DNA of 64,000 bases from the NCBI RefSeq assembly GCF_024521635.1, contig NW_026250406.1:1426001-1490000 (forward strand), written 5' to 3'. Both the position numbers and the translations under genes were made by a program. The notes beneath the pieces were generated by a model. It was given only the letters and a program-made list of their open reading frames with translations, was not told where the DNA came from and did not search any database. Positions 27,441-64,000 of the stretch are shown here, in pieces. Source of the DNA: Tricharina praecox. Lineage: Eukaryota. Numbering within the stretch: the first letter of the stretch is position 1; each line of letters starts with the position of its first letter.

Positions 27441-27748
27441 GTACTGGATTCGCTGCCATGGCTTGTGTCCTGGAACCGCTGTCATGGCCACTCCACTGGA
27501 TTCGCTATTAAGAACTGTGTTCTGTGATGATAGATGCCCTGCTAGGGCCTCAGTACTAGATTAGCTGCCATGCCCTCACTCTCGACTCGAGTCGCTGCCA
27601 TGGTCACTCTATTAGATTCGCTGTCGCTGCCTCTCTACTGGATTCGCCACCAGGACCTCAGTACTGGATTACTGGATTTGCTGCCAGGAACGCGCCACTG
27701 GATTCGCCTAAGACATTCCCTCTCGCTGCCGTGGACTTGATTCGCCTA
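27441..27748. repeat. Degenerate ~27-bp minisatellite with ACTGGATTCGC core
   Basis: About 10 cores near 27443, 27495, 27555, 27584, 27611, 27637, 27663, 27671, 27697 and 27735. Confidence 0.8.
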
Positions 27749-29105: not shown

Positions 29106-29226
29106 CAGAAGTGGAGAAGTGGAGGAGTGAGGAAGTGGGGCTGTGGGATAGTGGGTAAGTAGGATTATGGGGTGGTAGGCAAGTGGGATTGTGGGGTGGT
29201 GGGGTGATGGGTTGTTGGGGGATGTG
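29106..29226 (+). repeat. G-rich octamer minisatellite, unit 5
   Basis: gaagtggagaagtggaggagtgaggaagtgggg...gggattgtgggg, then the conserved GGGGATGTGACGGGGAAATG. Confidence 0.75.
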
Positions 29227-30559
29227 ACGGGGAAATGCGGTTTCCTTAGACGCGGAGGAGAAACCGTTTCCAGCGAGTGGCAGCAGCCAGAGCAAGAGCT
29301 GCCACAAGCAGCACTTCGCGGTCGTAAAATCTTCCATGTGCGGGGGGTCATCACCCGGGCGCATCGCCCTCCCAAAACATCGAGACACCGACGCTTGCGA
29401 TCACAGTGATATCGGAATCCTAGTCTGAAAGTTCAGGTCGACGATGCCTAAGGTGCAGCTGTTATCGCGGGAGTTGCGATCGATCTCTATTTCTTTGGGT
29501 AACCAGGGAGAATGGGAGGACGATAGTATGCGCGTGTCAACCTGGCTGCGGAACCTGCTCTGTGCGAGGGTCATTAAGTCGAGTATCCGCCACAAACACC
29601 TATTGCGTGATTTTATACAGTGAGATGCCCACTGGCAAGCATGATGCAGCTCACCACTATTCTCTCCTCTTCTCCATCAGGCCGTCCGAGCCTGGCCGCG
29701 ATCTCGATTCCTGTTGAATATAAGAGGTGGCTGATCATGACAATAGTATTCGAGATAGCAGCAACATCGTGGGTAGCGAGCTCTCTCTATATACAAGCTT
29801 CGTTGGCCAGACAACCTCTGCATCAATCCCTTCCTGAGGCTGGTCTACCGGGCGCAGACAGAACACCCGAGTGCACTAGAAACATCTTCATCCCCGGACG
29901 TCGCATATTCTGACAATTTCCGACCGCCTGGCCAACCGAGTCGACACATCGCAACGCATAGTGCAAGAACGCAGTCACGCGGAAATAGTGTTTTCTTTTT
30001 CCTTTAACCATATTCAATCGATCTTTCTTCCTCCACCACGCCCTCATAAACCGTGATCCGTGGGGGAAACATACCCCGCCAAGGACCCTTTCGCCACGAA
30101 AGGCACTCACGAGACATGTGTTGCCCGATGCGCGGGCGGGAATAGTTACCCACGACTATAGAAACGATATGGGCCCGAATACTGATACGAGCAAGCAGGC
30201 CAGGTCATCGACACAAGTCGCTCAACGATGGGTTACCGACCCGCAGTAATTCTTCGTCCTATGTTTTATCAGCGGATTCGGGGTTGGGCTGAGGGGAGGG
30301 GAGGGGTGTGTTTTGGGAGTTGTAATTTCGTGGAGGTGTTGATACAAGTAGACGTCCTTAGGTAACAGGAAAGTAATCGATGCGAAAAAAAAATGGGATA
30401 GCAAAAGAACAGCATTGGGACTTGATAGTAGCTCGATAGTAGATTCACTAAACCACTCGCACTCGTACCGGCATAATGGAATGAAGTAATGCGAAAGACA
30501 ACTGACATTTAGCACTTTGATACCCAGCAACATTTGGCATCTATCAAGACGCTGATGTC

Positions 30560-34958: not shown

Positions 34959-36200
34959 CAGTACAGACGGCTTCCGCCCACATGCTCGGTGGTAGACGAC
35001 CTTCGCAATCCAGCAGCATAGGTCGAGCTTTCGCATTGTGCGTCTGGATCATCCTTTCGGATGCACCGATTTTGTGCTGCGCAAAAGGTGGAGATGGCTC
35101 GAAGGTAATTCCGTGTTCTACGAGGATCGACCGAAACGAATGGTTATTGTATTCACCTTTACCATTGTCGCACCGGAACCGAGTAATCCGATTTTGCTGC
35201 AGTCTCGACTCGAACATGATCTTGAATTCTCGGAAGACTTGGCATATTTCTATATCCACGTAATTCGACTAAAGTCATCATTATAGAGAATATTGTACTT
35301 GCATCCGGATAGAGATTGGGGTTTTATCGGCCCACAGAGATCTGAGTGTATGAGTTCGAGGGGCCTTCCTGCTCTTCTGACCGGAGCATTCCTTTGAAAT
35401 TTCACCTTGGCCTTGGCCTGGACGCAGATTTGACATGTTGGAGTCTCAGAAGAATCAGAGGTGTCGATGTAGAGATCCTTCGGCAGAAGTTGACGGGGAT
35501 CTCCGAAGTTTAGATGCGCAAGACGGCGGTGCCAGGTATGAAGATCTTTGCGGTGCGAGGTTGAAGCTGCAGCAATTGCCGAGTGCGCACGCACGTGACT
35601 GATAGTGATTGGTTTGCCGAGGAGGACGCAGGTCCTACAGCCGAGATGTCGTTTGCCTAGAGGTTGTTCGGCAACAGTGTTAGATGATATGAATGATGTC
35701 GCTATTCGAGATCTGAAGGTGACATCGAAGCCAGCTTCAGTCAGTTGTGGGACCGAAGGAAGAAAGTTTCCAAAGTTAGGAACGTATAAAGCTTCCACCA
35801 TCAATGTCAGCCCACAGTCAAGCTGGAATTCGATTGTCTCTATTGCTGTGGCAAGACTTAGTGAGTCTGCCGATTCGACTTCCAGAGGTTTTTTGAGAGC
35901 TCAAACTTCTCGGAAGGGCAAAAGTTCAGCGGAGATGTGATGCGAGGGGCCGGAGTCGATTCTCCTGCTACATGTGGAGGTAGTTTTGCCGATTCTTATA
36001 TTATCGGAGAGACCGTTTACAACGGTAATGTTGGCATGATGTCCGGAAGTGGACTGGTGGCCTCGCTTTTCGTCTCATTCTTTTCTGATCGCAGCCGCCT
36101 TTCTCGTAACGTGGCATTCACTCGCCTTGTGGCTTTTCTTGGTGCAGTAGTAGCAGGTCATAGTAGCCTTTTCAGAGTCTTCAGGCTTACAAGTCCGTGT
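34958..36200 (-). mobile_element. Ty1/Copia remnant: gag zinc knuckle, protease, GAG-pre-integrase and integrase core
   Basis: CYYCTKKSHKASEC knuckle; RIDSGPSHH protease motif; WHRRLAHLN...CQICVQAK; LELIHSDLCGP; RFRCDNGKGEY; GASERMIQT; MWAEAV. Contains frameshifts and stops; no RT or LTRs attached. Confidence 0.93.
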
Positions 36201-39200
36201 GGGTAGTCACTGCTATTTCCTTGACTGGTCCGCACAATGGCGTCTTTGACGCTAGCGCACATCAGGAAGGAATAAAATCCGTTGGGTGCGAGTAGGTTGT
36301 CCTGACGCTGGCAACGCTGCTAACGCTCTCGAACGATTGCGTAGAATGAATGCCTACTCGTGTCTAGAAATGCGATACCAGTCGAACTACGTAACGCATC
36401 CAATGATCTAGGCTTGCTGGGAAATAACAATGCGCTGTCTGTTCCGTGTATGATTAGAGATGCCGGAAAACCCATGTGCCTGTGTGACCTTTCGTTCCAC
36501 CGTAACTTCTTGTTGAAATGGATAACCGTTGAAAATCTCTAAATGTTCACGGTCTATTTAAGGTAACATTCCTTTCGTATGTAAGAACATCTATTCTCTT
36601 CCAACTTCACTATATACCCTTCATAGACTATGCACATGCATCAAACTATATTCTAATAAATACATCCTTTTCATCCCCCGTCCTGCTTCTCCAGATCCTG
36701 CGCTTCCTCACCCTGCACCCTTTCCTCACCCTTCTCCCTTTCCTTCGTGGCTTCACGCGTGTAGGAGCACCGACTCCTCTTCTAGGCTGGCATGGCACAG
36801 GGGAAGGAGATGTATCCGCGGTGGCACCAGCAGCGCCAGAAACAGTACCAAGAGAAGTTCGGCGAGTAGCAGTAGGTAGGGCGAAGCGGGTATGTAGGGG
36901 GGTGGCGCTATCGAGGAAGTTAGCCGTATCGAGGAAGGAGCCGGTATCTAGGGAGGAAACCGTGTCAGCGACGTTTCCGGCAGGACGGGTAGTAGTAGGG
37001 AGAAAGGGGATTTTCAGCGGATCACAGGGGGTACGGAGAAGCGTCAGTGGCGTTGGGCGACTTGTAGGTAGTCGGCGTGACAGATTCATACATTTCTGGA
37101 GTAAGACATTTGGGGAGGAACGATGTCGAACGTACAGAAAAAGCAATCAGAGTTACGATGTGAGTGACCTTCCATATCATCATTCGCCTCGCAGGCTTGA
37201 GTGCGTGAGGATGAGGTCAGACTGATGGCGAGTGCTGTCGCCAGTGCTAATAAACCCAAAGAACCCTACACCTGACACAATTCGCGACGCGTAGAGTCCA
37301 CCATTAGAAAAACCATCTCCGCCGTCATCCAGGCTGATTCCGGCCTCCTTCTTCCAGATCTTCCTCGTCGTCCTCCTCCTCCACCTTCGCTGCCTATCCC
37401 TTCTCATCACCACGTTGTGCATGAACAGCCCCGGCTGCCCGATAGCTAGTGGGCAGTTCAGGCGGTTGCAGCGGGAGTGTGACGATAGAAAGCCTTCATT
37501 ATTCCCTGTCTTGCTGTAGCAGTAGATTTTCTATATTCACATGCTAACATTGCGACAAAAAGCGCCATGAGCCACATATATGTCCAGTGTACACTCCATA
37601 TCCAGTGGCGAGCTCATGGAATTGGCAGCGCAATTCTTCTGCGAATCCATTATTGCCGGCGGGAGAGCATTTGGCAGGAGAATCCAATGCATGGTGGCGA
37701 GGGCGCAATTCGACGGGGGATCATAGGACGACCATGCATCTGCAGCGGAGGTCGGGGGATGAGGCGAAGTAGGGGTAGAGGGTATCTGACAGGGTGAGTA
37801 AATAGAGGAGATGGCTGATGGCGAGCAACAGCATCTAGAGAGAAGTTAGGATTAGCGGCAGTTACAGGAAGGCAGTTACAGCACGGCGAGTGGCAGTAGG
37901 GAGACATGGTATTAGGTATTTCTAGCCAGAAGGGCAAGGAGAGTAAACTCTTTCCGCGGAATGGCTCGCAGCACGCGGAAAGAGTATTCGATCGAAACGA
38001 GGCTGGCAGCGAGAGCGTTTCGGCACCAGGACGAGCAGCACAAGGGGATTCTTTCAGCAGCAGGACGACCAAGAGGTTCCGGGTGAGGAGAAAGTCCCCG
38101 GTCGGGGAGATCCAGGTGAGGAGCAGTAGAGAGAAAAGGCATTCACAGCGGTGCCAGCGAGGTATCTGTTGTTCAGGGTCAAGTCAGCATGGCGCGGCCC
38201 CAATGTTAACAGCCTTCTATCGACATGAGTCACGAACAATATTGGTCTCCCACCCATCATACCGGAGCACCTATTACCAACAGCACCTATCCCACCAGGG
38301 CGATTTCGCGGGCCGGCGTCTTCAACACACTATGTAACCGCACCCATATGTTGAGGGCACCTCCGAGTTAACGTCACCCCCGAGTTGTTGGCACCACGTG
38401 TTGACGGGACGGGATAGTTGACAGGACGGGAGTCAAGGAACGGAAGGGTTGTCGGAGCGCAAGAGTTAAGAAAACCGACCAGCGACGGGCGAGGATAAGG
38501 TAGCCTTGTTAGAGCAAGGACGATTTGACGACACAGAATAGTTGTGGGAGTAGAAGACATGAGGGAGGAAGCCGACGTCGCGGACTAGAAACGTAGAGGC
38601 AGGGTCAAGGCCCCGGAACAGTTGTGGGAGGACGGAAGAGCAAGGCCGGAAGAGTGAGGGAGGGGGCGAAGAAGGTTTGTGGCCCCGGGAGAGTCAAGGG
38701 GCCTGATGAGTTGTGAAAACAACCTACTCATCCGCGCGGAGGAGCTTTGGGATCATGTCCAGTCCGCAGATGACTCTAGGGTGCAAGGCAGGACCCCGGA
38801 AGAGTCAGGTGGCATAAGATTCAGAGCACGAAAGAGGTGAGGGAGCCTACGGGGTGTCGATACTGCCATTTTCCAGATAGAAAACATGCAAGCAATGAAT
38901 AACACCAAAACCACACAGATTTCTGGGTGCGTTTTGCGCAACAGCGTTCCAACGAACGTTTCGACGTTCGAGACCTCCAGCAGACGTCGCTCCCAGCGAA
39001 TATGGGGGCGCGGGTCCGGTCAGACGGTCCCAACGCACTCGGCGCGACTGACGTAGCAATCATTATACTCGCATCCGGGTACGTTACCAGGATATATTCT
39101 CTTCATGACGCACTCACGGAGCGCTGTTGGGCAATGCACCAGAGGGAAATGGTTCTCCCGATGATAGAATCGAAAAGGGCCCGAATAGTATTGGGAGGAA

Positions 39201-39630
39201 GTAGGCTGAGCATCGAGGTCAACAACGTCATTGACACGCGTGTGTCGACGACAGGATACAGATCCCGCAAAGTTTCTATGATAAGTGTGAATAGGGCAAT
39301 ACGGGGTTGAAGGCGAGGCTGTGCTGGTTGGGGGATGTAACTTCATGGACGTAGGAATACATGTAAACACTCGATACTAGATTCGCTAAGCTGATCGCAT
39401 TCGCAGCCGCATAAATGGACGAAATAATGCGAAAGACGATAGAAGTTTAACTCATTGCTATGCAGTAACGTTTTGAATCTTCCGAACTGTGTTCGGACCT
39501 TCGACTATCCTCCTTGCTTTCCTTGCTTCCTGGGTTCGGTCAGCTATTGGGAGGTGAAAACTACCAGCAACGCGGAATAATAAGCTACTCTTCAGATTGA
39601 AACGACGACGCGAAACGCGACGGCGATGGG

Positions 39631-39879
39631 TGTCAAGATTGACGTCCAGAAGGGGCTAGAAGATTCAAGATCCCAAATGCTCCACCTCATGAAGCGGACG
39701 CGGACCGTGCTCATCTCAGAACCCGACGTATCTGATTATCTTATATGTATATGTATTGTGCCTTGGGCAAGACGAACGTGTATATAGAGGGCATCTCTGG
39801 CCCGACAAGAAGTAGAGAATCGATTCAAAATTGTCTATCCATCTATCCATCCTTATCTCTATCCTCCATATGCTTGACA
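39631..39879 (+). mobile_element. LTR copy of the TGTCAAG...CTTGACA family
   Basis: Full-length homology to 23731-24004; no TSD (ATGGG left, CTACC right). Confidence 0.85.
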
Positions 39880-41247
39880 CTACCTAGGTCATATCAGACC
39901 TCCATATCCTCCTTTCTGTCCTTGTTTCCTAACTTTCGTTAGCTACGAGCAGAGGAGGAACACAAAGAATGCGCAACCATGAGCTACTCACCGAGTTTGA
40001 GATCGTGACTGCAAATGCAACAGTAGTGATGAGAGTGAGGGCGCCGGGGCGCGGGTGACTCTTCGGCTTCGTTATCGTCTTTGAACGTGTCCGTGGCATC
40101 TCCCTGTCCGATGGTGTCACCGTCTTCGACTGCACATGTCGCTTCGTTGTAATGCTCTTCAGTCACCGCAGCATGCATTACCAGTCACCCATACGCCAGT
40201 CACCCATACGCCACCGCAGCTGGAAGACTGAACTTACCTGGCTCGTCCCTTGGGTGAACGGCTTGTGGAACGGCGATACGTTCCTCGGAAAGGCTAGGAT
40301 TTTCGAGGTCTCCGGTCTCAAGACATACTCAGTTGGATATACCATTATAGTGATGGTTTTGGAGGTGATTCATCAAAGTGATATTATTGGAGGATTATAG
40401 TTGAAGTGGTATGTTCGGGTGAAGGAGGGAGAGATAGAAGGGACGAAGAGGAAGAAACCAGGCTGCAACCCGCTAGGGCATTAGTAATTGCAAGCACTCA
40501 CCACAATTCCGTGTGGGCAGTGACTGGTATTTCCTGAATGGCCCGCACAATGGCTTCTTTGACGCTAGCGTAATACCACGTGGGGTCGGCAAGCGCCCAT
40601 GCAAACACTGCCTTCTCTCTCCCCTCATCTCTCCTTCGCTCTTCCACACATTTTGATTCTCCTACTCATCATCACTGACGTCCATGCGACGCTACCTGCC
40701 TTCTCTCTCCCCTTATCTCCCATTCTTTCTCCCACAAATTTCCCCTCTCCTGCACATCATTGCCTACGACCGTGCCACGCTACCATGGGGAGCGATCTGG
40801 GAGAATACCCGCACACACCTTCAAGGACCACGATTAGGTATGTAATTGCGCACACTAAGAATAACGCTACTAATCCTTTCTTAACTTCACCAAACCGCGG
40901 CGACACATCTCAATGCTGTTTATTATGATAACTGACGCAAAACAGTGGTTGTTGAAGGAGGGCCAAGGGAGATAATTCCTTTGCCCCCTTCAATTCCCGG
41001 ACACAGTTCCGCCATATGTACCGCCCCATGTCAGCGGGGGTAAGTCTGTTACTAGATCAACTTTCACTCCTCCTTCCTTTCTCCTTCATCATCTGGCAAC
41101 TAGAACTCTGCTACGAGATCATCACCAGCTCCACCGACAATCGAAAGGTAGATCTCCTCTTCCTTAATCGTCGCACTTAGTCATCATCCCTAACGTTCGA
41201 AATCCAATCCAGCTACTTACCTACCGTGTATTACCCGCACTAACAAG

Positions 41248-42100
41248 ATGAGTTCTGGTACCAAGCGAAAGACGTCGGACAGCGACGGTGAGGATGCGGC
41301 AAATCCTGCCGCTGTACCTGATGCGCCCTCACCAACCGCTCTTCCTGCCGCTGTCTGTGCAGCGCAGCCGGCTAGTCAGCCAGTCGACCAAGGCCAGCAG
41401 CCCGATCCGAACGGATCAGACCACATGATGCAGAACTTTGGAAGGACGACGCAGCAGCTCATTATGATGCTCTACGCTGCCCAACATACCCGTCTAGTGA
41501 CACGCCTCCTCCCGTATCAAATTTAGGTAAGTCAATTTCCATTGCCTGGGTTTCGTGCACGCCCGCCCACCGTCGAATATGGAAATACTGACGGCTCGGT
41601 GTGGGGTTTGCGTAAGACACTTCGGACGATCGCGTTAATTGTCTGCGGCGTCGATGCCTACAGGTACAATGCGCCCGGGACGAACGAGAAGGAATCGACC
41701 GAAAACCTGACGCTGATTGTTGCCCCGGTGTCGGTGATGTCCACCTGGACCGAGCAGGTATGAACGGCTCTTCGGGGTTATGCCTGTAATATGGGTGCGG
41801 CAGCACGGCGGATGCATGCCTTCTCAATTGCGCACCGTGTATCCAAGGAGAATCCCATCAATGTCGCGGTCTACCATGGGCCACGGAGATACTCGATAAT
41901 TTTCGCCGACTACGACGTGGTTGTAACAAGTTACTCCACTCTGGCCGCGGATTTCAGTGCTTCAGGCAATCGATAGTATGTCCCCTCCCCAACCGATCTC
42001 CCCACTTCCCCCTTTAATCAAAGCCGTGACTGATGTATCCAGTGCGGTTTCCGCAATTGTGCGGAGGAATGAACATTATTCTGCCGAAGGGGATCGGTGT
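41248..42100 (+). pseudogene. SNF2-family (HLTF/Rad5/Rad16-like) ATPase pseudogene, N-terminal lobe
   Basis: TRLLPYQI* (Q motif), GLRKTLRTIALIV (mutated Walker A GLGKT), TLIVAPVSVMSTWTEQ (motif Ia), VAVYHGPRR...DYDVVVTSYSTLAADF, and a degenerate IIL(D)EG(H) near 42075; introns retained. Confidence 0.9.
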
Positions 42101-44269
42101 ATCACCACAATGGTGACGATGCTAGGAGTTGCCTCCTTGATGGGAGATGCTCATGTCCTCACGCCTCTTCCCGACCCCTACTGTAGCGGTGGGCTGTTGT
42201 TACGGAAATGTGGCTGCTGCTGAGAATATATCTTCTGGTATGGAGGTGGAGGCTTGATGATCAGGAGAAGGGTTTTTGTCCTGAATTCAAACTGAACGGC
42301 TACTAGCCAATTGCACATTATGATGGAAATAATTGAGGATTTTGAGCTGTCTACACCGGAGGGAAATCTCTGCAGTGCGACCGTGTGCTGTCAGTTCTAA
42401 TCATCCCCTGGTAGATATGTGTGTAAAAACAATCAAACCGTAGAGACTCGTTCCTCAGCACGTAGTAACGGTGTTTACCTTTCGGACGTCTGTTCATACC
42501 CTCATACAGACCTCGCGGGAGATCTACCTCCTCCGCTCTATGGCCGATTGTTGGTACTGCGAAGGTTTTTGGTGCTTTCTTCCGGTCGCTACTCGGTCGA
42601 TACATGTAATCCGGCGGCCTAGTAGTTTCATCGATGTAGAATTTTCATTTTGCTTTCCAATGCGATGTTCTATCCGAATACGTGATCTATCGCAACATGT
42701 CTTTATATCCTTCCATCTCGAATCCGTACAGCAATGAGAAGGAAGTACCCCTGCCAATTCGCGATGTTCTGATTTTCGACGAACCCCAGCGAACATCTCC
42801 GGTTCTCGTATCCTGCTCGTGTGTGCTACAAAAGCATATCACCATGCGAATTGCAATCTGATTGCCACGAAGACTCTCAAAGATCACGGAAGTCTCGCCG
42901 AAGGCACACCTTGGTTGTGGTCGTATGCACGGTCATACCAGGACTACCGTAATCGGAATGTGATGTGTCAACCGTCACCCTGTACAAATAGCTTCTTATG
43001 AAGCCAAACTGGATCTTGATTCTTTCCGGCCGTGATAGACCAGAGTCCGTCACGAATAGAGTTAGAGAGGTCCACATTCGCCATGTCTGCTTCCAACTGT
43101 ATGAAAACAGAGGGATGAATGCTGGGGTCGAAACTATCGTGCGTGGTCAAACGGATCCTGCAGGCGAATGATTCGGGATGCTGCATACTGGAACTTCACT
43201 CAGCGCGGTGAATATTTTTTACGTATTCGTACTACTAGCTTTGTTTCGTGCGTCGATCCGGCGCATGGACTATGCTCGACTAGCCAGGAAACTAAGGGCG
43301 CCTAGTTAAGCGAGCGTAACACCTGTCGCACAAGGAGTCGAGGACCGCTGCCGAAAACTCGGGATGAAGAGCGAAAAAAATGATTCGAATAGTGGCTCGC
43401 ACACTAGAATCCGCAAGCTCGCGACGTATTGTATATTGCGCACAGCATAACCAAATATAAGCGTTTGATTTAACGGAATGCAATCTCCGCAATCGAAGGC
43501 CAGCATCTCCATCGCGAACTAAGTATGGTAGAAATAGAGCAGGATTGCGTAGACCCCGGTTGTTTTAGAATTGCGCACAGGAAGGATGAAGGAGTCGAGC
43601 GCGAAGCGGAGGAGCAAAACGTGTGAAGGTATACCGCACGATGATGGGAGAGAAACGGGGCCGGCCAAGGTTAGCCAAAAAAGCAGGCTGACCCTTGAGA
43701 AAGTGACGTAGATACCTGCTAATCGGATTTCTCTGACAGCTACTCGAAAGCTTTGCGTACCGCGCTCCCCAAGCTACAACTGTCTTGGCTCCCGTGACAG
43801 AAATGGCAAGCTGCATTAGCCACGTGATGTGCTCCCGTCGCGGGTCTAACCCTAAAGGTTAAACTAGTGTTAACGTTTTTCAATGCCTAGAAGTGGCGTG
43901 GACGTTCATCACCATGACTACCACCCCGTCTTTCATCCTTTCTCTCCCATTATCCTTCTTCTTCTCATTCTCTTCCTCCTCATCAACCTCCTTTGCTCAA
44001 CAACGACGACAACCACAACCACACATGATTACAGCCTTCCGGGGCGTATCCCTTTTTCCGGTCCAATCAGGCAAAAGCACAAACTCATGGTCGCCACCAT
44101 GGCGGTTCAAAAAAGGAGTCCGGCTTTCGACGGAGTCACTCCACCGCCGCTGAAGTATGTCATTCCCAGATTTCTCCTCTTCATTAAGCGATGCGTTTTG
44201 ACTGATCAGGTGGCAGCCACTCAACGGTCCCACGGTGTCTGACAAGACAAGCATGTCCGAACCTCCAGC

Positions 44270-44560
44270 TTTTTGGGTTTATATACCCGGCTACCGGGCC
44301 TGTGTGTATCCTTCACTCTCTCTCCGGGTCTTCAATTCCTAATGTTTTGTGTAGCAGACCCACGTGTTCATGCGGATGTTTGCTGAGCGGGCCCCGGGGC
44401 CTGCTCCTGCGCTGCTTCACGCAAAACATCGATACGCTCGAGGTGCCACAAGCACCATCAAACCCTCTTCCGCGTCAAACGTGCGACGCGGAGATCTGCG
44501 GAGCAACAGTCGTATGACAGAAAATTGTCTCGGCATTGAATTAGGACAATGAACCGTTTC
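44270..44560 (+). pseudogene. Sirtuin (Hst2/SIRT2-like) fragment, copy 1
   Basis: An intron-like stretch, then THVFMRMFAER and (frameshifted) GLLLRCFTQNIDTLE, the class I sirtuin TQNID motif. Confidence 0.85.
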
Positions 44561-44857
44561 GAAGACCGGCGACCGCTCCGCATTTGGAAAATGTCTGTCT
44601 AGATTAAGACGGACAAGAGAGTCATGTCTGAGCCACCTACGCTGCACCCACTGCGCCTCGGTCACCCACTCTTAATATCAACAGTCCCATTCGCATCTGG
44701 CCCGACACGACTGCGTTCAAATAGATGTTCCTAGTATGGGGAATACTCTCGCCTCTCAGACGTCTCGTCGGAGTTACCTTCTCCTGCCTCGTGTTGCGAA
44801 AGCGTCCACGACGTCGGAGACCAGTATTTCGTTTCTATCAACTACTACCAGACGCCA

Positions 44858-45280
44858 AAATGAGAGGAAAAGTCTACAGAGCCCTTCGACCAGTCGATGC
44901 CCCCAGCGAAGCTCTCGCGACGCGATCTCATCGTTGTCGCCGAGTACATCAAGTCGGGCAACTGCAAAAACGTCGTGTTCATGGTATATACCTACTCTTC
45001 ACTCCTCCCCTGGGCTCTTCACTCTCTCACCAGGTATCCAATTACTAATGTTTCGCGTAACAGAACAACGTGTTCATGCGGATGTTCACACAGCGGGCCC
45101 CGGGGCCTGCTCCTGCGGTGCTGCACGCATAATATCGACACGCTCGAGCTGCCACAAGCACCATCAAATGCACTACCGCATCGAACGGGCCACGCAGAGA
45201 TTTGCGGAGCTGGAGCCGAATGACAGAAAACTGTCTCGGCTCTCAACCAAGACAACGTCAGGGAACCGTTCGTCCTGACC
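44858..45280 (+). pseudogene. Sirtuin (Hst2/SIRT2-like) fragment, copy 2
   Basis: EEKSTEPFDQSMPPAKLSRRDLIVVAEYIKSGNCKNVVFM, an intron, then NVFMRMFTQR and GLLLRCCTHNIDTLE; the GAGISTxxGIPDFRS segment is absent. Confidence 0.85.
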
Positions 45281-45519
45281 AACTACCGTACAACCGCAAA
45301 CTGCCTTGCCCGGTACCTACAAGCTGTAATATGGAAGGTGTACGGCAAGGCGTCCCAGTGACGTCTGCCGAAATCACCGCTACTGTATTTGCGGGGCTTC
45401 CGCTTTACGGCAGTAATATAACCGCCCAACTCCTATAACCAAGCGGCTGAATTGCGCCGTGTGGGATTTCATCTTCGAGATTGTATCCAATGATTGGCGA
45501 GGCCGCCTTTCCAGTTGGT

Positions 45520-45720
45520 GGAGGAGGCTGCGGCCTGGGCCGAAGACTCTGGCTTTATTTTTATTTTTGCTTTTTGTTTTTTGTGTTTGTTTTTGTTTTG
45601 TTTTTGTTTTTGCTTTTGTTTTTGAGGAGGTCGCGGCCTGGGCTGAAGGCTCGGGCTTCAATTTTTGTGTTTGCTTTTTGTTTTTGTTTTTGTTTTTGTT
45701 TTTTTGCTTTCTGCTGTAGT
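45520..45720. repeat. ~103-bp tandem duplication, each copy ending in a (TTTTTG)n microsatellite
   Basis: GAGGAGGCTGCGGCCTGGGCCGAAGACTCTGGCTT versus GAGGAGGTCGCGGCCTGGGCTGAAGGCTCGGGCTT, each followed by TTTTTG runs. Confidence 0.88.
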
Positions 45721-46396
45721 AATTAATTTTACTTGTTGCTTTATTACACCTTGTCCTGCCACGAACAAGATTTGATGTCGACTTCGCAACTTTGTATTTC
45801 TACCTGTAGACGATCGTAAGGTGATCCTGATGAGGCGGGATGGTTGACATCGGTTTCAACGCTGGAGGATTACTGTCATCGCGTGGTTCAATACCGCTCA
45901 CGGCCCCACCCAACCAGGCCCGCCTGATCGAATGCTAATTCCATACGAGATTGATGCTACAACCTTTTGCTTAAATGTAGGCATTCATACAGTCGCTGCC
46001 ATTGACGGACAGCCATTTCACCCGTGTGTAGCCCACAGCTGACTCTTTTACACGCAAGATGACAATCTTACTAAAACCTGTGCTTTGCAGTAGTACCAGC
46101 GATGAGAGCTGCTAGATACCTGTGAGGATTAGTGTAAAATCAAATTAGTAATACCTAAATCAACAGCTGCTTTCTACACATTCACCTGAAGCCTAAATGT
46201 AAGCCGCAGCAATTAAAGCTCAGTAAAGATGCCTATGTCTGCTATATTCGCGCAGATAGAGATCGAATCGTTTTTTCTTTTCCTGCAACCCTCGCTATTC
46301 CGGCTTCTCCGCCGTTACTACCATTCTCGCCAGTACTATGACGTTTGAACCCCGATTGCGAACAGTGACATGCCCAGTGACCCTTGGTAAGAGCTC

Positions 46397-47897
46397 CTAG
46401 TCATCTCGCTCCAACTCAGGCTCATTGCTTCGAGTCAAAGCTTCGAAAATCTTCTTGACCTTCTTGATCTGCCACATAATTAGCATTACTGTTATCACTT
46501 CATTCTCCTGGATCATCAGCCATGAAACCTACACCCCGTCCAATGGTAATCTTCTTAGCCTTCTCCGCCGCCAACCTCCCTTGCTCCGCCTCCCACTCGT
46601 CCACGCCCAATGTGAAAGTAAATCTCTCCTCCAGCGTCTTACGCGGGGGGAAGAAGCTCGGATAGATCCTTGGCATCGGCGCCTTTCTCGGGGCTTTTGT
46701 GTGTGCAGGCCGCTTCTCTGGCATCAGCATGTCGTTGAAGTGCAGACACGTATGCAAGTAATCCGACCTCGGCTGTGTGGTCATGGACCAACATCCCATC
46801 GGGCGATTCCTAAATTTGGTTCCGAGTTCGCCGTACAGTCCTTGAAAGTTGGTGGTGTAGGAGTAAACGCAGTCTTCATGCGGGAATACAGGGCTGGGTG
46901 GCCGTCGAGGAACCTCGGGTTCGTCGCCGAAGTCGATTTTTCTCAGCCCCTGGATAGCCGGATCGGTCGGGTCTCCGAATAATACCGCCTGGCGCCGCGC
47001 CCGTCCGTACGAATACGCTGTCCCCGCACGATGCCTGTTGCGACGGTCCAAAGACTTGACAGGAGGACCGAGATTGCTCAGGGTTTGCGCCCGTTTCAGT
47101 GCGCCCCGGGGGACCAGGATGTTGGCGATTTCGGCTTTGGCGGCGGCGAGAGCGTTGTGGTATTCGTCCACCGGAAGCGCGCAGTCGGCGTCATGCGGAT
47201 TGGCATTGGCGACGATTGGGTAGTCGAATGGGACCGTCTCTGGGGGAATAGGGGGTGGAGGGGGTGGAGGCAAGCATATGCGGGCAGTACTTGATGTGGA
47301 GCTCCGTTGCATGCGACGTGGTGAATAGCCTTCGATGAATAGCTGGCGTGCGGCAATCATGGAGGGCCTTGTCAACGGCGGCGATGGCGCTGAGATTGAA
47401 CGCAGGCGATTGGCATTGGCGTCTCCGAACAGATCATTGCCCTCATAGATTTGAGGATGACCATCCTGGCCGGAAAGGACGCGGCTAATGGCCTCATTCG
47501 CCGACTGTAGCTGACGTCGCGGAGGCTCATGGTACCAGTGCGCTTCCTCCGGAAGCTGATAAGGCTGCTGATAATTGTGAGGACGGATTGGAGGAGCTAT
47601 GTTTGTTGCGCTGCGCTGGATTCGGATCCTCGAGGGACCGCCATTGAAAGCCTCCGGAGGCATAGGCATGTCATGCAGCGGGTAGGGACTGCTCATTGCG
47701 GGGGAAGGCTCGGACGCCGAGCGAAGGCGCTCCGCATTGGAAAAGCTGTGTTCATATCCCATCTCAGCTAGGTAGTGCGGTGCTCTGCGAATGTATGGTA
47801 CGCGGTGTGGAGGGACGGAAGGAGGTCTATCATCGTCCTCAGGCTCTGAAGGCCGACACTGTCCTGGTGGCGGAAATGAAGGGTTGTTGCTCCACAT
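46397..47897 (-). CDS. Proline-rich hypothetical protein, 2 exons (47897-46533 and 46468-46397), 478 aa
   Basis: 465-codon ATG ORF; a 64-bp intron GTAGGT...GCTAAT...CAG (46532-46469) splices in frame to IKKVKKIFEALTRSNEPELERDD*. No domain recognised. Confidence 0.75.
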
Positions 47898-49164
47898 GGT
47901 TGTGAGTTGTTACACGGTGGACTCGGTCGGTACGGTGGTGGGATACGGTGGTGGGATGTGAGAGAATTGTGGCTTGTACAATGGCAGTCGCTGAGAAGAT
48001 CCCACTCACACTGTGGGGCATGAGGGGGCTGGCGCATTCGAGTGGTCTGATGGGCGGCGACCGTTGTAGTAGTTGGCGCTCGGCCTGTCGTGTGTGGTAT
48101 AGGGTAATAGGTAGGTCACGGCGTTCGGGTTTTTTACTGTTGAATATATTGTCGACCTCAGACTAGTGACACCCGCTTCTCTATATCGCCGATTCGCTGT
48201 GGAAGGCCGCAAAGAGGCGTTCGCCTTTCCCCTACTTTGCTAGCAATGAAACACTGCAGCGTCACCCCTGATGGAGTTTTACGGCTATCGAGCTTTTCCA
48301 TCATCAATACCATCACCCGTGTTCTTGTTGGATCACATATCTCGAATCGTCAAGATATTTCAAAAATGAGGGAACAAGCACTTCGCTGTTGTTGCGGGAA
48401 GTAGGTCCACGCTAGCCCCGCAATCGCGCCTGAACTAAGCGAGGTAGTCGGTTACTATTCCGGGATTTGCGCGATCAAAATCATATTTTTGGTGGTGGTT
48501 CGAAGGATTGTGGTGAATAATCGCAATTTATGCATGGCAAGGTCTACCAGAAGACCAGAAGGTACTGAAGTTTGAATCTTAGGGGAGTTTGCAGAACACT
48601 GAGTGAGGCGGATATCGCCACCGTCACAAGCACAGAGGTCACGCTGCAAGGCATAAGCGCGGTCAACGTCACGTGATAAACAGAGTCGCTAGCGAGAAGT
48701 GGAGCTTCGAAGGGCTTGTGTTACAAATATGCCGCACGGTAGGGCAAATCATATCACGTCTACTCACACTTATCTGCTTATAAGCAGTCACATAAATCAA
48801 CGCACACACAAATTTTAACCGAGCGCACACTGGCAACCATGCCAAGTCTCGCCCGCACCCCAACAAAACCCACACGCGTCTTCCTCGAATCACATCTCTC
48901 TTGCCACTCTTCTACTCATCCCTCTCTCCCATTAGTTCCACTATTCATCTACTCCAACTACACCAACTACGCCTACCACCCGTACTCTTTCCCTACATTG
49001 TCCTCTTCCCACAACTTCCACCCTTTCAACACCCCCCTTATTCCGGCTTCACCTGCACTCTCCCGCGACAGCGTTCGAAAAAAGCTGCCGAAGAGTAATT
49101 TCGGTGACATCTGATGACGACTTAATCTCGTCATTGGGCTGGGCCATTAAAAATGGCCCTCAAG

Positions 49165-50177
49165 CGATGTTTTCTCGTGCATCGATTGCTCGACTACAGG
49201 GATGCGGTCAGGTTCGTATAGATGTCTTCCCTCTACTGACCAATCATGTTCCTTCGCATACTGAGCTCTGTGATGGATTACTAATGTATTTTGTTCGAAT
49301 AGGTTGTGCAGGAGCTGGACGTTGTCAGTGTGCGGTGTTGCTGCCTCCGACACGTTCGGCGTCCCGAACACGTCTATCGGAAAACACGTCTTCTTCCGTA
49401 CCAGCTTCGGGTAAGCCAAGTTTCATCGCCCGGGTTTCGTGCATCTAGATCTTAGGGGAAACTGACGTGTCCGATTACTCTTATAGGGTCTCGAGTGGCT
49501 CCTGTAGCAGGAAGATCCGGACTTTCCCACAGTTGACAAGGAAGTAAAGCTGTGGGAAAAGATGAGAACAGACTATCACCTGTACATACAGACGGTAACC
49601 GGATGGCGCAGTATGGACATATCACACCTTGTCACCGGGGGTATACTCGCGGACGATATGTTTCGTGCTCGCTCGCCAGCTCGTCATCGCCCATGGGAAT
49701 GCTGTCTAGTGCGTGTAGGGCATGGACGTTCAGATTTCCCACAAGCTGTGTTTTTTCCAGCGTCCATCAATCGCATGGATGCGACCTGGTACGTACATAT
49801 GTTTCTCCTCCTCTGAAAAATCATGTTCTTTCAAGTACTGAGCTCTGAAATTGATAACTAATCTGTTATGTTTCAATAGGTGGACGCCGGAGGGGGACGT
49901 TGCTGGCGTGCGTCGTTGCCGCCTCCGACAGGTTCGGCGCCTCGATCGTGTACAGCTTGTTTTTGAGGACAGCGTTCAGGAGCGCGTGTTGGAGGTGCAG
50001 AATAGGAAGCGTGCGTCGGTGATAGCCGAGCTCGGCGAGGGTGCAATGGAAAGGACGCACGAGGATATCAAGGCTGTGCTGGCTGAAGATGAGTCCCACG
50101 ATGACGAGGCGGACGAAGATGACCCCAAAGACAATAAGTTTAAACGGCCGAGCTCGGTGAGGGCGGAATGGCACTGA
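49165..50177 (+). pseudogene. Scrambled SNF2 (HLTF/Rad5-like) pseudogene: C-terminal piece, then Q motif/motif I piece, then C-terminal piece
   Basis: KTRLLPYQLR, intron 49411-49486, GLEWLL*QEDPDFP...KLWEK...TGGILADDM; then MDATW, an intron, WTPEGDVAGVRRCRLRQVRR...LVFEDSVQERVLEVQNRKR (motif VI region and tail). A homologous intron+exon also precedes the Q motif (49212-49375). Confidence 0.88.
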
Positions 50178-51267
50178 GGTTGATGGTATCAAGGCTGTGA
50201 TAGCTGGTGATGGATCGAAAGTTGATGAGAGAGTATGGGCCATTTGCAAATGATGAATATAAGGGGTAGATAAACACAACAATAGTATTCAATACAGTAG
50301 CAATATCGCGAGCAGCTCTCTCCCTCTCCATGCACAGTGTTCATAGACTACACTAACAACGCTATAGGAGTTTCTCTTACTACAGTAAAACGGCTGGTGG
50401 GGAGTAGCGGTAATGCGGCTGGCTTTGATGTACACCGTGCCACTTAAAAAAACTTGGAATGTAGACAGCCTGATTTGTGGGCAACCCTAGCTTATTACTG
50501 GCTTCATTTGAACCGGCAGTGAAGTAAAAGTCGGTATTCCGATGCAGGCAATAACGCAGTCAACTTTGGGGAGAGCTAAGGTTTCCGGGAGCTTGCAGCG
50601 GAATTCTTGCGCACTTCGAAACACAGCCCATGTGAGTCGTAAATTGTGATAAAACCAGCGTTGCCATACAACTAGCGTTACTGTACAAGAGTTGGAGATA
50701 TTCAAAGCTAGCCGTAGGTCAGAAAGAACTGCTGAGCCGGAGCATCACTAACTCATCTCTTCTACATCCTCGCCAACTCATCTCTTCCGCTGCGCCTGCA
50801 AATACTCGTCGCAAATATCCACACCTTACATGCAACTATCGTCACGAGCCGGCAGTTTTGATGAAGTTGAATTCCTATACAGATACTCACACCTTCATAC
50901 TCAGCGATCCTAATTCCTGGTTATGTGGAGGAGCTGTAGGAGGGGTTGTCGTCAAGAGGCGGAAGTGAAGGAGGACTGCTGTCGGTGGGAGAAGACGGAT
51001 GTGGTTTGCAGAGCGAACAAACGTCAGCGGGCATGGCGGGTATAGCGGGGTCGTATGCTCTCTTAGCCATCTCCTCCTTCTTCTTTTTATTCTTCCGCAA
51101 CTCCTCCTCCCTCCCACAACTCCTCCCCCCCATAACTCTTGTAGGAGATATCTGCATCGATAAGTTCAGGAAATAGTTCCGTCGCCCGTCGACCGTCAGC
51201 CGAGCTCGGATACTCCACGAGAGTACACTAGGGGCATCGTCATCTCCGGACTTGCCATATTCTGACA

Positions 51268-51500
51268 GAAATGACCCTCGATCACTGTTTTCTCCCTCTT
51301 CCGTTGGTCGCAGAGATGAGACATGTGCGTACATCTATCCCCCGTCTTCTGAAGAATCAGGTTTCTTCGTGTGGTGAGCTCTGCAATGGATTGATAATGT
51401 GTTTTGTTTCAATAGGCAAAGGTAGGAGTGGGTTTTTGCCGATGTGCGGCGTTGCCGCCTCCAGCAGGTTCCGAGCGTCGGACAGGTTCGGCGCCCCGGA
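51268..51500 (+). pseudogene. Third copy of the SNF2 C-terminal exon-intron-exon unit
   Basis: The intron with AATCA(G/T)GTT...TGAGCTCTG...TGTTTCAATAG and the exon GTGCGGCGTTGCCGCCTCC...GACAGGTTCGGCGCC match 49212-49365 and 49789-49945. Confidence 0.75.
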
Positions 51501-54500
51501 CACCTGCACCCGAGGATATCTCGGTGGGGTGTGAAGCCTTCACCAGCTCTATGAGCCGAGGCAAGCTGACCATCAGGAACGACAATATTGATGCTGCACC
51601 TCCTCCGCTCGTCAGCTGCATTCCTCCCCCACATGCTTTACCTAGCTGCTAAGAACTCGATGAACAATGTAAACAGCGTCATAGACAAAAACAATGACTG
51701 TATCTGCATATACTGCGCTTCTCTGTCCCGCATCTCCGGCGGAGCGGTAGGTAACAGTACCTTTGTTACGGAAGAAGCTTGTGCTGAAGCCCATGCTGAG
51801 GCTTACATGCACGCAGACGTGCGGAGCGTCTGGGAGAGCAGGAAATGGCCGGACGGACGGCCCACAAAGCATAGCCCGCCTGGACCCGGACGGGAGAGGA
51901 GAAGGACCCGTCGGCGGTCATCGATATTGCCGACTCGCAGCTTTGGGCGGCCGGTGTCGTCCTGGAGAGGCCCTTCAACATCCCTCCATTCCGCTTCCCC
52001 CAGAGCACTGGTGGGTTCGCGGATATCAACGCGGGTGGTGCTTCCCAATGGGAAGAAAAGATGGAAGAGGCCTACAAGATCCAACTGCTGGGTGCTTTGC
52101 CAGCTCCACTGATGAGCGGCTTGCCGTGGTTCGAGGATCTTTTGACGTGGGTAAGTTCTTCATAATTTCCCGTCTGGAAAACTGTTTGAGCATGCAATCA
52201 ATTGCCAAAAGGTGATGTCACTGCACCTCCAAATGGTCGGTGCTACTGCATAGGACCAACGTGGTCCCTGCATCCTGCCTGCGGGCACTGACAAGCTCCA
52301 CAGATTACATTTGCATCAGAAATCCATTGCCGACAAACCTGGCCAGAAGCAGATATTTGGGATTAAGCCCAGATCCCGTGTGAAGGATCTGCTCTCGAGG
52401 TTTGTTACCTGCTGTTATCAACAGTGTCTGGAAGGTTTAGAAATATACTTCAGCCTTCCGCCAAACCTCGTGGTGGGGAATTACCACGCCATTCCCTCGG
52501 GAATGTATTAAACTTCGGCGACCCGGCACTATTGGAATGCCGTCCAACAGAGCGCTGCTTCGCCTGTGCACCCCGCTGGGGGAAGGATGTCACGACCGTA
52601 AGATCGCCAAAGCATTTTCCAGTCAGAACAGATTGTTGATAGTGCCAGACCACAACTGCGGCGGCGAGGTCAAGCTCGCGCAGACTATCACATCCTCGGT
52701 CCCTGAGAGAAGATAATGATCGAACACGCCCCAACCCGCCTCGGGCGGCTTGGTGATTCCAAAAGACGCCGTCGTAAGTGATTCATTCTAGTCTTCGATT
52801 CCACTAGACTAATAGGTTTTCGCAGTTGGACAATATCGACAAGGGAAGAGACACCCCGATGGTGCTAACCTAACGGACAATAAAGGCACATTGGCATGCG
52901 GAAGCTTGAAACGTTAAGTGTAATGATGGCGGAGCCAGGGCCGGAACGACCTTTCTCCGAATATATGAAGCTTTGGGGTTTTTGGTGAAGTTACTGGGAC
53001 CGCAATTAAAAACTATTATTACATACTACTACTGTTCTTCCATCCCGCGTACGCATCCTGTATGCCCACCATCTATCATGTGATCACCGTTTTGCCAATT
53101 CTCAGTGTTGACCAGTTTTAACCGCATACTGAAATCGAAGTTCTGCATGGGGTTGCGTTCGGGCGCACCCATAACGAGTTATGTTCGTTTTGGTGGTGGA
53201 GATAGTGGATCTGTTTTCATCGTGTCTATATTTCTCAGGAACTCCAGCTGAAACATCAACCGTTGAAAGGCCGTTAAATGTTACACCTGCGGATTTCCTT
53301 ACGAGTTTCTAATAATTGCGATTCTTTTCGCATGATCTTCTCCTCTGCCGCACCGATGAGAAAAGGAAATCCAGTAAATAAGGGTTGATTTTGTTTCCCT
53401 GATCGAATAAACACAAAAGAAGAATTTATCCGAATATCCACTGTCATCTGGGTGGATAAGCAATATTTAACGACACGAGTAAATGCAACCAAGAGAGAGG
53501 GAAGCGACTACTACTACTCATGATGTCGACCGGGGAAGGTGGAGAGAGAGGAATTGCTCTCGACGTAGTGCAACATTCTCCTCATACTATGCGAATAAGC
53601 CGCAACGGAGATCACTGAAATCATAGCTGCCGGAGAGCCGGAAAGATATATCTCGCAGTGAAGCAATCCTATTTAGGATATTCCTGCGGGCCGCGACGAA
53701 TTATGGCTCCGGATTTGACCTGTCATTCTGACAGTCGGTGGCCACTGAAGGGAGATTGAGAATGTTGAAAGTGGCGTTTGTGGGGTTAAATTTGAAAATA
53801 AATGTGTCGGGGCTGGTAATGGTGGTTTATTTGCTCCTCATGAAATTCGGTGCCTTGGATAAACGCTTTGCAATGTAGCGGTCTCGTTGTAGCTCTGTGG
53901 ATCGGCTATGTTGATGTCGACAAGCAAATCGGGATTCGGAAAAGACATTGAAAAAAGGTAACATACCCGGCCGATCCCCTTTGCGCCATCTGCCCTCACG
54001 CCTACACAAACTACACCGCTCCACTCGAAGTTTACTATGCTGACTCACCATACATTCTACCTCCCTCTGCAACATCAACAGATCATCCACTCAGTGGTTC
54101 GCCCGTTTAACTTCATCTTCTCCCCAACGGGCATCGCACAATCGTCTTCCAGCAACCAACCCTAGAATATGGCTGCTGCGCACACGAATCCCCTTCCCCG
54201 AACATGGCTCTAACCCATAGCGAAGTGGTTTCCGCACATGGGTCTACCCCATTGCGAAGTCATGCCTTCTTGCCGTTCGCCAGGAAGATTGCATCGACGT
54301 AATTCTCGGTGTTTACACCCGGTCGAAGTCCTGTGCTTTGCCTAGCCGTACCGCTCGCACGATTGAACCATGACCGGCGTCATTCCATCCATCGGTTTAC
54401 GCCTCATCAGCACTTGAAGCTCGGAGGTGTCCAAAGCGGAAGACCTTTTGGTGGAAGCAATAGGAGACGGCGTAAGCACCCTCTATTCTATTTTCAAACC

Positions 54501-62744: not shown

Positions 62745-64000
62745 TAAGTTTGGCAGTTGCGGTACCCTTGAGATAGTGTAGGATTATCTTGACTCCGGTC
62801 AGCTGTGTAGCATAGGGTGTCTGGTTGTAGCGACCAAGGGCGGACACAGCAAATGCGTTATCCGGCCGGGTGCCGAGGGCTGCATATTACACATTGCCGA
62901 TAATGCGACGGTATATGATTAAGTCTGCCTCGGAGTCGGCGTCAGAAATGCAGTCGAGCTTGGTTTTGTCGTGAAGAGGAGTCGGGGCCATATTAGCATC
63001 TTCCATACCGAAGCACCTTAGAATCATGGCGATGTATGCACTTTGACCGACGGTGATGGATCCATCCGTTTTCCGATCGATTTCAATGCCGAGGAACTGC
63101 TTCTCTAGGCCCACGTTTGACATCTTTTACTGCCGCATGAGGTGGTTCTTGACGTCCATAGCCCTATCGGAGGCCGAGTCCCCATGGAAAACAATGATAT
63201 CGTCGATGTACAGTAGTATCATTACTGCATCGTCCCGGATGTAGAGGTTGATGTCGGCCTTGGACTGTATGAAGCCGAGCGACAGAAGGTAGTCATTGAT
63301 CTTATTGTATCACTGTTTGGGTGCCTGCTTTAAACCATTTAGGGGCTTATTCAGGCGCAGGAAACCGTTTCTGGGTGTCTCGTGAAGCCACTCGATACCA
63401 TCCGGGAGTTGCATGTAGACTTCAGCATCGATTGCAGGGTTGAGAAATGCGGTAACAACGTCAAGGTGATAGATCTTCCAACCGTTCTAGTCAGCAAAGC
63501 TTAGCAGATATTTCAGGGTAATCAGCTTACCAACTGGAGCAAAGGTCTCATCATAGTTGTGTCCCTAGACTTGCTTGTAGCCCTTGATCACAAGTCTGGT
63601 CTTGTACGGGGGTAGAACCATCTGGGTTCCTCTTAGTTTTATAGACCCCTTTGTAGCCAATAGGCTTGCTCCCAGTCTGCTCCATAGGCGTGAAGACCAA
63701 GTCCGTAGATGGCCCCATCTACGGACTCGGTTGAGAACGGACCGCATAAGTCGGAGTGAACCAGTTCGAATGGAGTCGTTCTGCGTTGCATCGGAATACG
63801 GACGATTTTCTGCTCGTGCTTGGCAAGCACGCATACCTCACAGATATCTGTACCGTGTGTATAGCCGTCGATTAAAGTCTTCATTGCGGCTGCGTGTAAG
63901 TGGCTGAGCCGCTTGTGCCAGAGGCTGGATTCCATGGTTGACAGACGTGGAGTTTGTCTCGATGCGTGTACGGGAACTGACTCTGAAGGGGTGGTGCCGA
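62745..64000 (-). mobile_element. Ty1/Copia remnant: GAG-pre-integrase and integrase start, an internal deletion, then reverse transcriptase (continues off the window)
   Basis: LWHKRLSHL...CEVCVLAK...FELVHSDLCGP, then YKTRLVIKGYKQ, ETFAPV, HLDVVTAFLN, GLKQAPK, LLYIDDII, FLGIEI, TRPDNAFAVS; several stop codons. Confidence 0.95.

Follow-up and report, generated by a model that had tools for sequence, protein, structure and literature searches.

Remnants of SNF2 helicase and sirtuin genes, among them a transcribed and spliced chimera, in a gene-poor stretch of fungal DNA

How do pieces of two unrelated genes, an SNF2 helicase gene and a sirtuin gene, come to lie side by side on one strand, introns included, within some 10 kb of a fungal genome? 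The question is raised by positions 41.2 to 51.5 kb of a 64,000-nucleotide stretch of the Tricharina praecox assembly GCF_024521635.1 (contig NW_026250406.1, positions 1,426,001 to 1,490,000 of the forward strand), which we call the window and in whose own numbering all coordinates are given. An earlier sequence-only reading had described plus-strand, intron-bearing SNF2 and sirtuin remnants here, with their nucleotide-binding motifs lost or damaged, and had suggested that they might be the cargo of an unrecognised gene-capturing element biased to chromatin genes, or simply neutral debris. The description is borne out by tblastn, by matches to SIRT2 and by a motif scan. What is new here is that one chimeric remnant, at 48,890-50,280, gives rise to a spliced transcript, and that the 3 kb carrying both sirtuin fragments is a presence/absence polymorphism. 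We consider that the cluster probably represents the eroded non-processed pseudogenes of a local birth-and-death array of gene duplicates and not transposon cargo; the debris alternative fits most of the data.

The relationship of the SNF2 pieces was established through a single protein. Using the exon at 41527-41760 as a 78-amino-acid (aa) query in a word-limited search, only one relative was found at an E-value (E) of 0.001 or below among 69 candidates, namely P0001, a 773-aa HLTF/RAD5-like SNF2-RING helicase of Tricharina praecox, for which the fold family was confirmed. A tblastn of P0001 against the window returned six matches, of which three were significant (41275-41973, corresponding to residues 2-243, E 3e-69; 49508-49660, residues 93-143, 88% identity, E 8e-24; and 49953-50144, residues 658-721, 69% identity, E 5e-19) and the other three were noise (E of 5 or above). 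A more sensitive run added 49384-49410 (TRLLPYQLR, residues 77-85) and 49487-49660, together covering residues 77-143, and lengthened the C-terminal match to 49881-50144 (residues 633-721, E 9e-23). Five SNF2-derived segments can be recognised in all, which we call alpha (41248-41976), U1, N2 (49362-49718), U2 with the C-terminal end (49738-50177) and U3, and these are remnants of at least two N-terminal and at least three C-terminal copies, all on the plus strand. The earlier count of two sirtuin pieces stands, whereas that of three SNF2 pieces gives way to the five segments found by self-blastn and MAFFT.

Along residues 1-85, 86-143, 144-243 and 633-721 the segments are 53-88% identical to P0001, and a Pfam SNF2-rel_dom match (E 3.7e-5, in alpha) agrees with this descent; in contrast to HLTF/RAD5-type SNF2-RING helicases, however, they have no intact Walker A, DEAH box, RING or motif VI. 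No window segment matches residues 244-632 of P0001 at a meaningful E by tblastn. Across the whole 64 kb, a motif scan in six frames detected neither GxGKT nor LDEAH, GAGxS or PDFR and returned only one GLRKT, one ILADDM and the two QNID blocks of the sirtuin fragments. Judged by sequence, the five segments thus appear to be remnants of the HLTF/RAD5-type family and not functional members of it. When P0001 was searched against metagenome contigs only two distant loci were found, at 38% and 29% identity.

The most complete segment, alpha, keeps its own ATG and begins with exon 1 at 41248-41523 (P0001 residues 1-85, from tblastn and reading of the sequence), which terminates in a TAG (41521-41523) where P0001 has Q. 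It continues with exon 3 (41605-41757, residues 144-192) and exon 4 (41827-41976, residues 193-243), the latter terminating in a second TAG (41974-41976). Exon 3 starts with GLRKT (41605-41619) in place of the GLGKT of Walker A, as the sequence-only reading had pointed out, and provides the SNF2-rel_dom match mentioned above, which at 23.4 bits lies just below the cut-off of 24.9; exon 4 matches the same domain at E 0.024, and a PDB search with exon 3 gave chance matches only (E 0.2). No significant homology is seen in alpha after residue 243, so that the DEAH box, RING and helicase-C are absent from this copy. A DEAH-like trace at 43153-43188(+), 1.2 kb 3' of the last alpha exon, was rejected as not significant (P0001 residues 248-259, 6 of 12 identical, E 28); the fourth occurrence in the window of the 8-nucleotide (nt) word described below adjoins it (43244). 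Some 460 nt 5' of the alpha ATG, at 40608-40784, lies a CT-rich tandem repeat of two 88-nt units, which may be an old promoter region.

Also as had been read from the sequence, alpha lacks P0001 residues ~86-143, that is the GGILADDM (P-loop) exon, and what stands between exons 1 and 3 records how it was lost. The hybrid intron there (41524-41604, 81 nt) joins the 5' part of intron 1, through the word TTTCGTGC, to the 3' part of intron 2, and its 3' splice site AG is changed to GG. Over its first 24 nt it agrees at 19 positions with the 5' part of N2's intron 1, while the 3' remainder scores 9.5 against intron 2 of N2 (the sequence after ADDM) versus -4 against what is left of intron 1. Of the four occurrences of the 8-mer in 64 kb, three are at these introns. 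From the make-up of the hybrid intron and the placement of the repeat, exon 2 was removed by a deletion between 8-nt direct repeats, TTTCGTGC, in the flanking introns. Alpha and N2 overlap over the end of exon 1 and adjoining intron sequence (41500-41559 against 49384-49443 by self-blastn) at 78% identity, so they stem from separate copies and cannot be two halves of a single gene.

The downstream pieces follow one another on the plus strand in the order C-terminal, N-terminal, C-terminal. U1 (49151-49367) is a C-terminal helicase piece of about residues 618-655 that includes a 91-nt parental intron. It is followed by N2, which comprises the end of exon 1 (TRLLPYQLR), intron 1 (49411-49486), an exon 2 that is 88% identical to P0001 residues 86-143 with an in-frame TAG (49505-49507) where P0001 has Q, and unspliced intron-2 sequence; its homology finishes at GGILADDM (49643-49660), in accordance with the earlier statement that the second copy stops at ADDM. 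Then come U2 and the C-terminal end, about residues 622-721 with a stop at 50175-50177, in which motif VI is degenerate (this region is ~32% identical to P0001 in a by-eye count on the alignment) and the tail is well kept, with matches to the C-termini of DDM1 and RAD5 in the PDB at E 0.06-0.55 and a partial internal duplication (50025-50091 with 50147-50212). U3 (51269-51480) is a third C-terminal unit. Self-blastn and MAFFT thus define a C-terminal unit of ~210 nt present three times (49151-49367, 49738-49945 and 51269-51480); the three are 69-73% identical overall (U3 to U1 and U2, 69-72%) and 74-75% in their common intron, which is 91 nt long with GT..AG kept in all of them. The U1/N2 junction lies at ~49362-49368, joining the N-terminal piece at residue ~68, and the N2/U2 junction at ~49719-49738, right at the end of intron 2; both have few shared bases. 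An order of C-terminal then N-terminal is what would be expected when a deletion spans the boundary of head-to-tail copies and is followed by one in the interior of a single copy.

These downstream pieces form a unit that is transcribed and spliced. It extends from 48890 to 50280 on the plus strand with exons at 48890-49211, 49303-49410, 49487-49788 and 49880-50280, and its introns of 91, 76 and 91 nt each have GT..AG at splice boundaries that were checked. Two sequencing runs from two studies, X3 and X4, contributed one contig apiece (1145 and 1081 nt), aligning with 0-1 mismatches and three joints at 48890/48942-49209, 49301-49409, 49486-49787 and 49879-50263/50280. No run is on record as RNA and the RNA status of these two is a guess by the tool, so the evidence is the spliced form; a DNA contig from a further run, the metagenome X1, retains the three introns that the X3 and X4 contigs skip, which indicates that the spliced form is derived from RNA. 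The sequence-only reading had held that its proposal would be undermined if the fragments were untranscribed, and for 48.9-50.3 kb this is not the case. On P0001 the 76-nt intron corresponds to the boundary of residues 85/86 and the second 91-nt intron to that of ~632/633, and their removal restores colinearity with P0001; the spliced contigs thereby confirm two intron positions and with them the earlier claim of copying at the DNA level. The X3 and X4 contigs give no cover on alpha, the sirtuin fragments or the open reading frame (ORF) at 46.5-47.9 kb and have no bearing on the expression of these.

In the spliced sequence of 1133 nt one frame is open from 48936 to the stop at 50175-50177 save for the TAG at 49505-49507, and stops are frequent in the other two frames. 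Of the ORFs that start with ATG in the parental frame, the longest have 58 aa (from 49167) and 175 aa (49562 to 50177), with several ATGs upstream of the latter. The 5' part of exon A had looked P0001-like by eye, but this was rejected, as its local score of 18 lies below the shuffle mean of 24.6 and was reached by 297 of 300 shuffles. The unit is like known pseudogene-derived long non-coding RNAs in having a spliced polyexonic RNA, pseudogene pieces and an interrupted parental frame; it differs from them in being known here from contigs alone, with its strand read only from the orientation of GT..AG. It is most likely a transcribed pseudogene, and one that we infer to have no function of its own.

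The second parent is represented by two fragments on the plus strand. Fragment A (44188-44560) has a degenerate N-terminal exon, an intron-like spacer and an exon with HVFMRMF, a frameshift and GLLLRCFTQNIDTLE; fragment B (44897-45275) opens with an ATG-bearing N-terminal exon (44897-44983), after which come a spacer (44984-45063) and an exon that shares the frameshift of A and carries GLLLRCCTHNIDTLE. They contain direct copies 706 bp apart (44311-44534 and 45017-45240) that are 84% identical over 224 nt. The GLLLRC(F/C)T(Q/H)NIDTLE blocks, with TQNID at 44419-44433 and THNID at 45125-45139, have SIRT2 chains as their best matches (E 0.0034 for A and 0.041 for B) and are near-identical to the corresponding block of SIRT2. 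Unlike class I sirtuins (SIRT2/Hst2), the fragments lack the GAGIS/PDFR NAD-binding segment, appear to lack the catalytic-His block and have a frameshift inside an exon. The N-terminal exon of B resembles SIRT2 residues 14-34, just before GAGIS, at a level that is not significant alone, and between it and the HVFMRMF exon there is only the intron-like spacer of ~80 nt; since this leads straight into the HVFMRMF exon, the GAGIS/PDFR segment is missing, as previously claimed and in line with the motif scan. In each copy the frame is shifted at one and the same GC-rich palindrome, which precedes GLLLRC, and the lost segment and frameshift common to the two place the tandem duplication after inactivation. 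No AHG (catalytic His) block was found within the fragments, and by eye only a possible CxxxxC...V remnant follows NIDTLE; Pfam SIR2 had no match on the short sirtuin ORFs, and a homologue search gave none of 102 candidates at E of 0.1 or below and retrieved no fungal Hst2. The label 'Hst2-like' should accordingly be taken as a tentative one, reflecting solely the preference for SIRT2.

Comparison with other strains showed that the sirtuin part of the cluster is not fixed. Six runs contain parts of the window, and four of them were aligned to 39000-54000. The contigs of X1 (1269-4023 nt) have 0-3 mismatches to the window and represent a near-identical strain, and yet a block of ~3 kb (42722-45713) that holds both sirtuin fragments is absent there: an X1 contig of 2639 nt aligns to 41652-42721 and 45714-47256 with 26 letters between, and X1 depth is 0 over 43008-45011, where a more divergent strain, X2, is covered in every bin. 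The right edge of the block lies in a masked (TTTTG)n tract, so the true breakpoint may be up to 26 nt further left, and the 42721/45714 joint is listed among the aligned pieces and not among the called joints. The tract itself belongs to a low-complexity stretch (45521-45715) with two tandem units of ~100 nt, each with a terminal (TTTTG)n. A recent deletion in the X1 lineage is the simpler reading and is favoured over an insertion, because the block is absent from the closest strain and covered in the more divergent X2. Over the SNF2 fragments X1 depth is 7-9, equal to that of the flanks (~7), which hints at a single copy.

Taken together, these observations can be accommodated by the following history. 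An SNF2-RING gene of the HLTF/RAD5-like kind would once have been present here in several head-to-tail copies, with a SIRT2/Hst2-like sirtuin gene, or a fragment of one, beside them. Deletions at the DNA level, with ends mostly in introns at short direct repeats or microhomologies, would then have taken whole exons and most of each copy, and the sirtuin fragment would have been crippled first and tandem-duplicated afterwards. Erosion would be ongoing, as a near-identical wild strain is without the 3 kb carrying both sirtuin pieces, and the remnant at 48.9-50.3 kb would keep a working promoter and splice sites. Such a tandem array with deletions would account for the C-then-N order, for the P-loop exon that is missing from alpha and kept 8 kb away, and for the lost catalytic motifs.

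The cluster has both the parental introns and the disabling lesions of non-processed pseudogenes (TAG at 41521, 41974 and 49505, deletion of exon 2, loss of splice sites and the sirtuin frameshift). It resembles birth-and-death tandem pseudogenes in its retained introns, its diverged local copies on one strand, its lesions and its segregating loss, and differs from them in that the pieces are tiny (200-700 nt), are re-joined as a chimera and come from two unrelated parents. No signature of repeat-induced point mutation was found across 38-54 kb (TpA/ApT 0.46-0.91, composite index 1.02-1.37). Transitions to transversions between duplicates are 17:19, 11:12, 13:11 and 12:11 with CpG observed/expected at ~1, and this substitution pattern would indicate ordinary slow divergence.

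Several observations weigh against this history. Identity to P0001 is 88% in exon 2 of N2, ~72-78% in alpha exons 1, 3 and 4 and ~81% in the C-terminal tail (the latter two by eye), which is unexpectedly high beside the intact DUF726 gene of the window (3517-5712, plus strand, E 3e-117), whose protein is 54-58% identical to those of Sphaerosporella, Wilcoxina and Pyronema (Pyronemataceae), the distance between the species being uncalibrated. The word-limited 78-aa search that found P0001 gave no other named Pyronemataceae protein among its 69 candidates, and a distribution so patchy, combined with such similarity, might be the mark of an SNF2 family that is mobile or was recently transferred; we take this as a lead and not as evidence. 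Divergence is also uneven, with motif VI ~32% and the tail ~81% identical to P0001. The spliced frame meets no stop at either chimeric junction or within ~98 codons that lie outside the parental coding sequence, and this is mild evidence for coding constraint, past or present, tempered by the CT-rich character of the 5' part of the frame, which makes it poor in stop codons anyway.

Of the alternatives to pseudogenes of a local array, the one that survives best, although we regard it as unlikely, is that the chimeric unit is a functional young gene, encoding a 175-aa truncated SNF2 decoy or dominant-negative protein, or else the precursor of a regulatory or small RNA acting on the parent helicase. 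It would explain why spliced contigs, mismatch-free or nearly so, were recovered in two runs from two studies with all three introns precisely removed, why one frame runs through both chimeric junctions into the 175-aa ORF, and why exon 2 and the tail are kept far better than motif VI. However, transcription of pseudogenes is common, the in-frame TAG at 49505-49507 is also in the RNA contigs (0 mismatches), and both several ATGs and the 58-aa ORF precede the 175-aa ORF. The X2 strain moreover has indels of 1-2 nt at 48988, 49031 and 49339, in the upstream part of the frame. There is no Pfam domain in exon D of the unit, Helicase_C included, and the repeated units are all direct, with no inverted repeats capable of forming a hairpin. 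A more specific form of the idea is a little less likely still: the spliced remnant might be a young domesticated truncated protein, consisting of the exon-2 surface and the C-terminal tail, or an RNA that modulates the parent helicase, derived from a patchy and possibly horizontally moving SNF2 family shared with Tricharina.

The proposal from which the question started, that an unrecognised mobile element that captures genes, such as a Helitron, a Pack-type or a large cargo-carrying element, brought the fragments here as its cargo, we also consider improbable. Transposon-captured gene fragments are chimeric, intron-bearing, drawn from different genes and sometimes expressed, and the window pieces are like Helitron or Pack-MULE captures in all of these respects, including the expression of one of them. 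Intron-retaining chimeric pieces of two unrelated genes side by side on one strand, a sirtuin-bearing 3 kb present in some strains and absent in another, and SNF2 pieces surprisingly near to a T. praecox protein with no other named relative found would all suit such cargo. Capture of gene fragments by Helitrons has been reported in fungi (PMC4289320, PMC5148889). By contrast, the window as scanned here has no carrier gene, no termini, no target-site duplication and no multi-copy depth over the fragments.

The scan covered 325 ORFs with Pfam: 137 of the 161 ORFs of at least 45 aa in the cluster (40.8-51.7 kb; omitted were 6 in the low-complexity tract at 45.4-45.9 kb and 18 that lie inside the 46.5-48.0 kb ORF or overlap it), 100 of at least 110 aa elsewhere, and 88 of 70-109 aa from 29.8-40.9 and 51.5-64 kb, with 1-29.7 kb left out for this size. 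None of the 325 matched RepHel, PIF1, DUF3435, KDZ, Plavaka, MULE or hAT, and no transposase family was found among the 137 in the cluster. The only mobile-element domains are degenerate Copia remnants on the minus strand at 35.3 kb and 62.9-64.0 kb (35253-35900, 62890-63126 and 63642-63998; gag_pre-integrase E 8e-12 and 7e-9, RVT_2 E 4e-6). No terminal inverted repeats were found in 42400-46000, and at the edges of the one candidate block tested, 42722 and 45713, there were neither 5'-TC...CTRR-3' Helitron ends on either strand nor target-site duplications. The sequence-only reading had itself reported no carrier transposase or termini, and the scan and the end checks agree with it on this; its cargo hypothesis is not upheld. 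Against cargo stand also the single-copy depth, the fact that alpha retains an ATG and an upstream region of its own, as would suit a gene at its original site, and the distribution of the 3-kb block among strains, which a deletion fits better; the junctions and the loss of exon 2 are explained by simple deletions between copies. The supposed bias to chromatin genes amounts to two parent genes only.

A last alternative, that the scrambled order is an assembly artefact of collapsed or chimeric contigs in a repeat-rich region with a low-complexity tract at 45521-45715, can be dismissed as very improbable, since independent metagenome contigs cover 40404-42721 and 45714-47256, and since one X1 contig that runs colinearly over 48021-50089 with 2 mismatches and the cDNA-like contigs span both chimeric junctions, so that the order is real.

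Apart from the SNF2 and sirtuin remnants, the window is poor in genes. Among the 100 ORFs outside the cluster that reach 110 aa, only DUF726 and two Copia gag_pre-integrase remnants have matches (E of 0.001 or below), and among the 88 of 70-109 aa a single one, the Copia RVT_2 remnant, does so at E of 0.01 or below; DUF726 is the only solid Pfam gene in 64 kb. The next best match of the DUF726 protein is 68% identical, and in a tree of 15 proteins it groups with two metagenome proteins, followed by Sphaerosporella, Wilcoxina and Pyronema, which puts the organism with the Pyronemataceae-like Pezizomycetes; the Tricharina praecox match in this tree is a paralogue.

Close to the chimeric transcript, X1 depth is 42 over 50523-51023 versus ~7 in the flanks, indicating multi-copy sequence between the transcript and U3. 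The stretches 50251-50322 and 51221-51267 have counterparts in a related stretch (29712-29915), where only 82 nt separate them, and this suggests an insertion of ~0.9 kb here. Further 3', at 51570-52109(+), Pfam gives a weak match to a transcription-silencing protein, Clr2_transil, at E 0.0018 and 19.5 bits versus a cut-off of 27. With 325 ORFs scanned this is within chance; were it genuine, it would count as a third chromatin-related piece. In the interval that separates the sirtuin group from the SNF2 group, an open frame of 469 codons on the minus strand (46503-47909) encodes a proline-rich orphan with no Pfam domain, which among 1.8 billion representatives matches the 411-aa P0122 (the window's own) and one other protein, P0123 (154 aa, 49%). 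Just 5' of the cluster, a dispersed repeat of ~100-200 nt at 39701-39901 recurs at 23827-24218 and, inverted, at 7412-7583 (67-89% identical); X1 depth approximately doubles over 39.5-40.5 kb, and the repeat is perhaps a solo LTR, or else a small non-autonomous element.

A further group of repeats occupies 15000-30000, where diverged direct-repeat families (D1-D4, D6-D9, D11, D17, D18 and D20) are 60-88% identical and spaced at ~2-6.5 kb. Two minus-strand ORFs within it, of 283 aa (16608-17456) and 305 aa (22152-23066), have no Pfam match, and a Protein Atlas search with the 305-aa ORF gave no usable match. The array gives the impression of a further tandem family in decay and, like the scarcity of genes, is in keeping with the kind of erosion seen in the cluster.

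The region would gain a broader significance if the chimeric transcript acted on the parent helicase, or if the SNF2 family were mobile between genera, but nothing here shows either. What it mainly offers is a clear illustration of the way in which gene duplicates come apart in a fungal genome, through exon-precise deletion between 8-nt repeats, fusion of tandem copies, re-duplication of a dead fragment and a loss that is segregating in wild strains. It is likewise a warning for annotators, as a healthy-looking spliced transcript can stem from a patchwork of pseudogenes.

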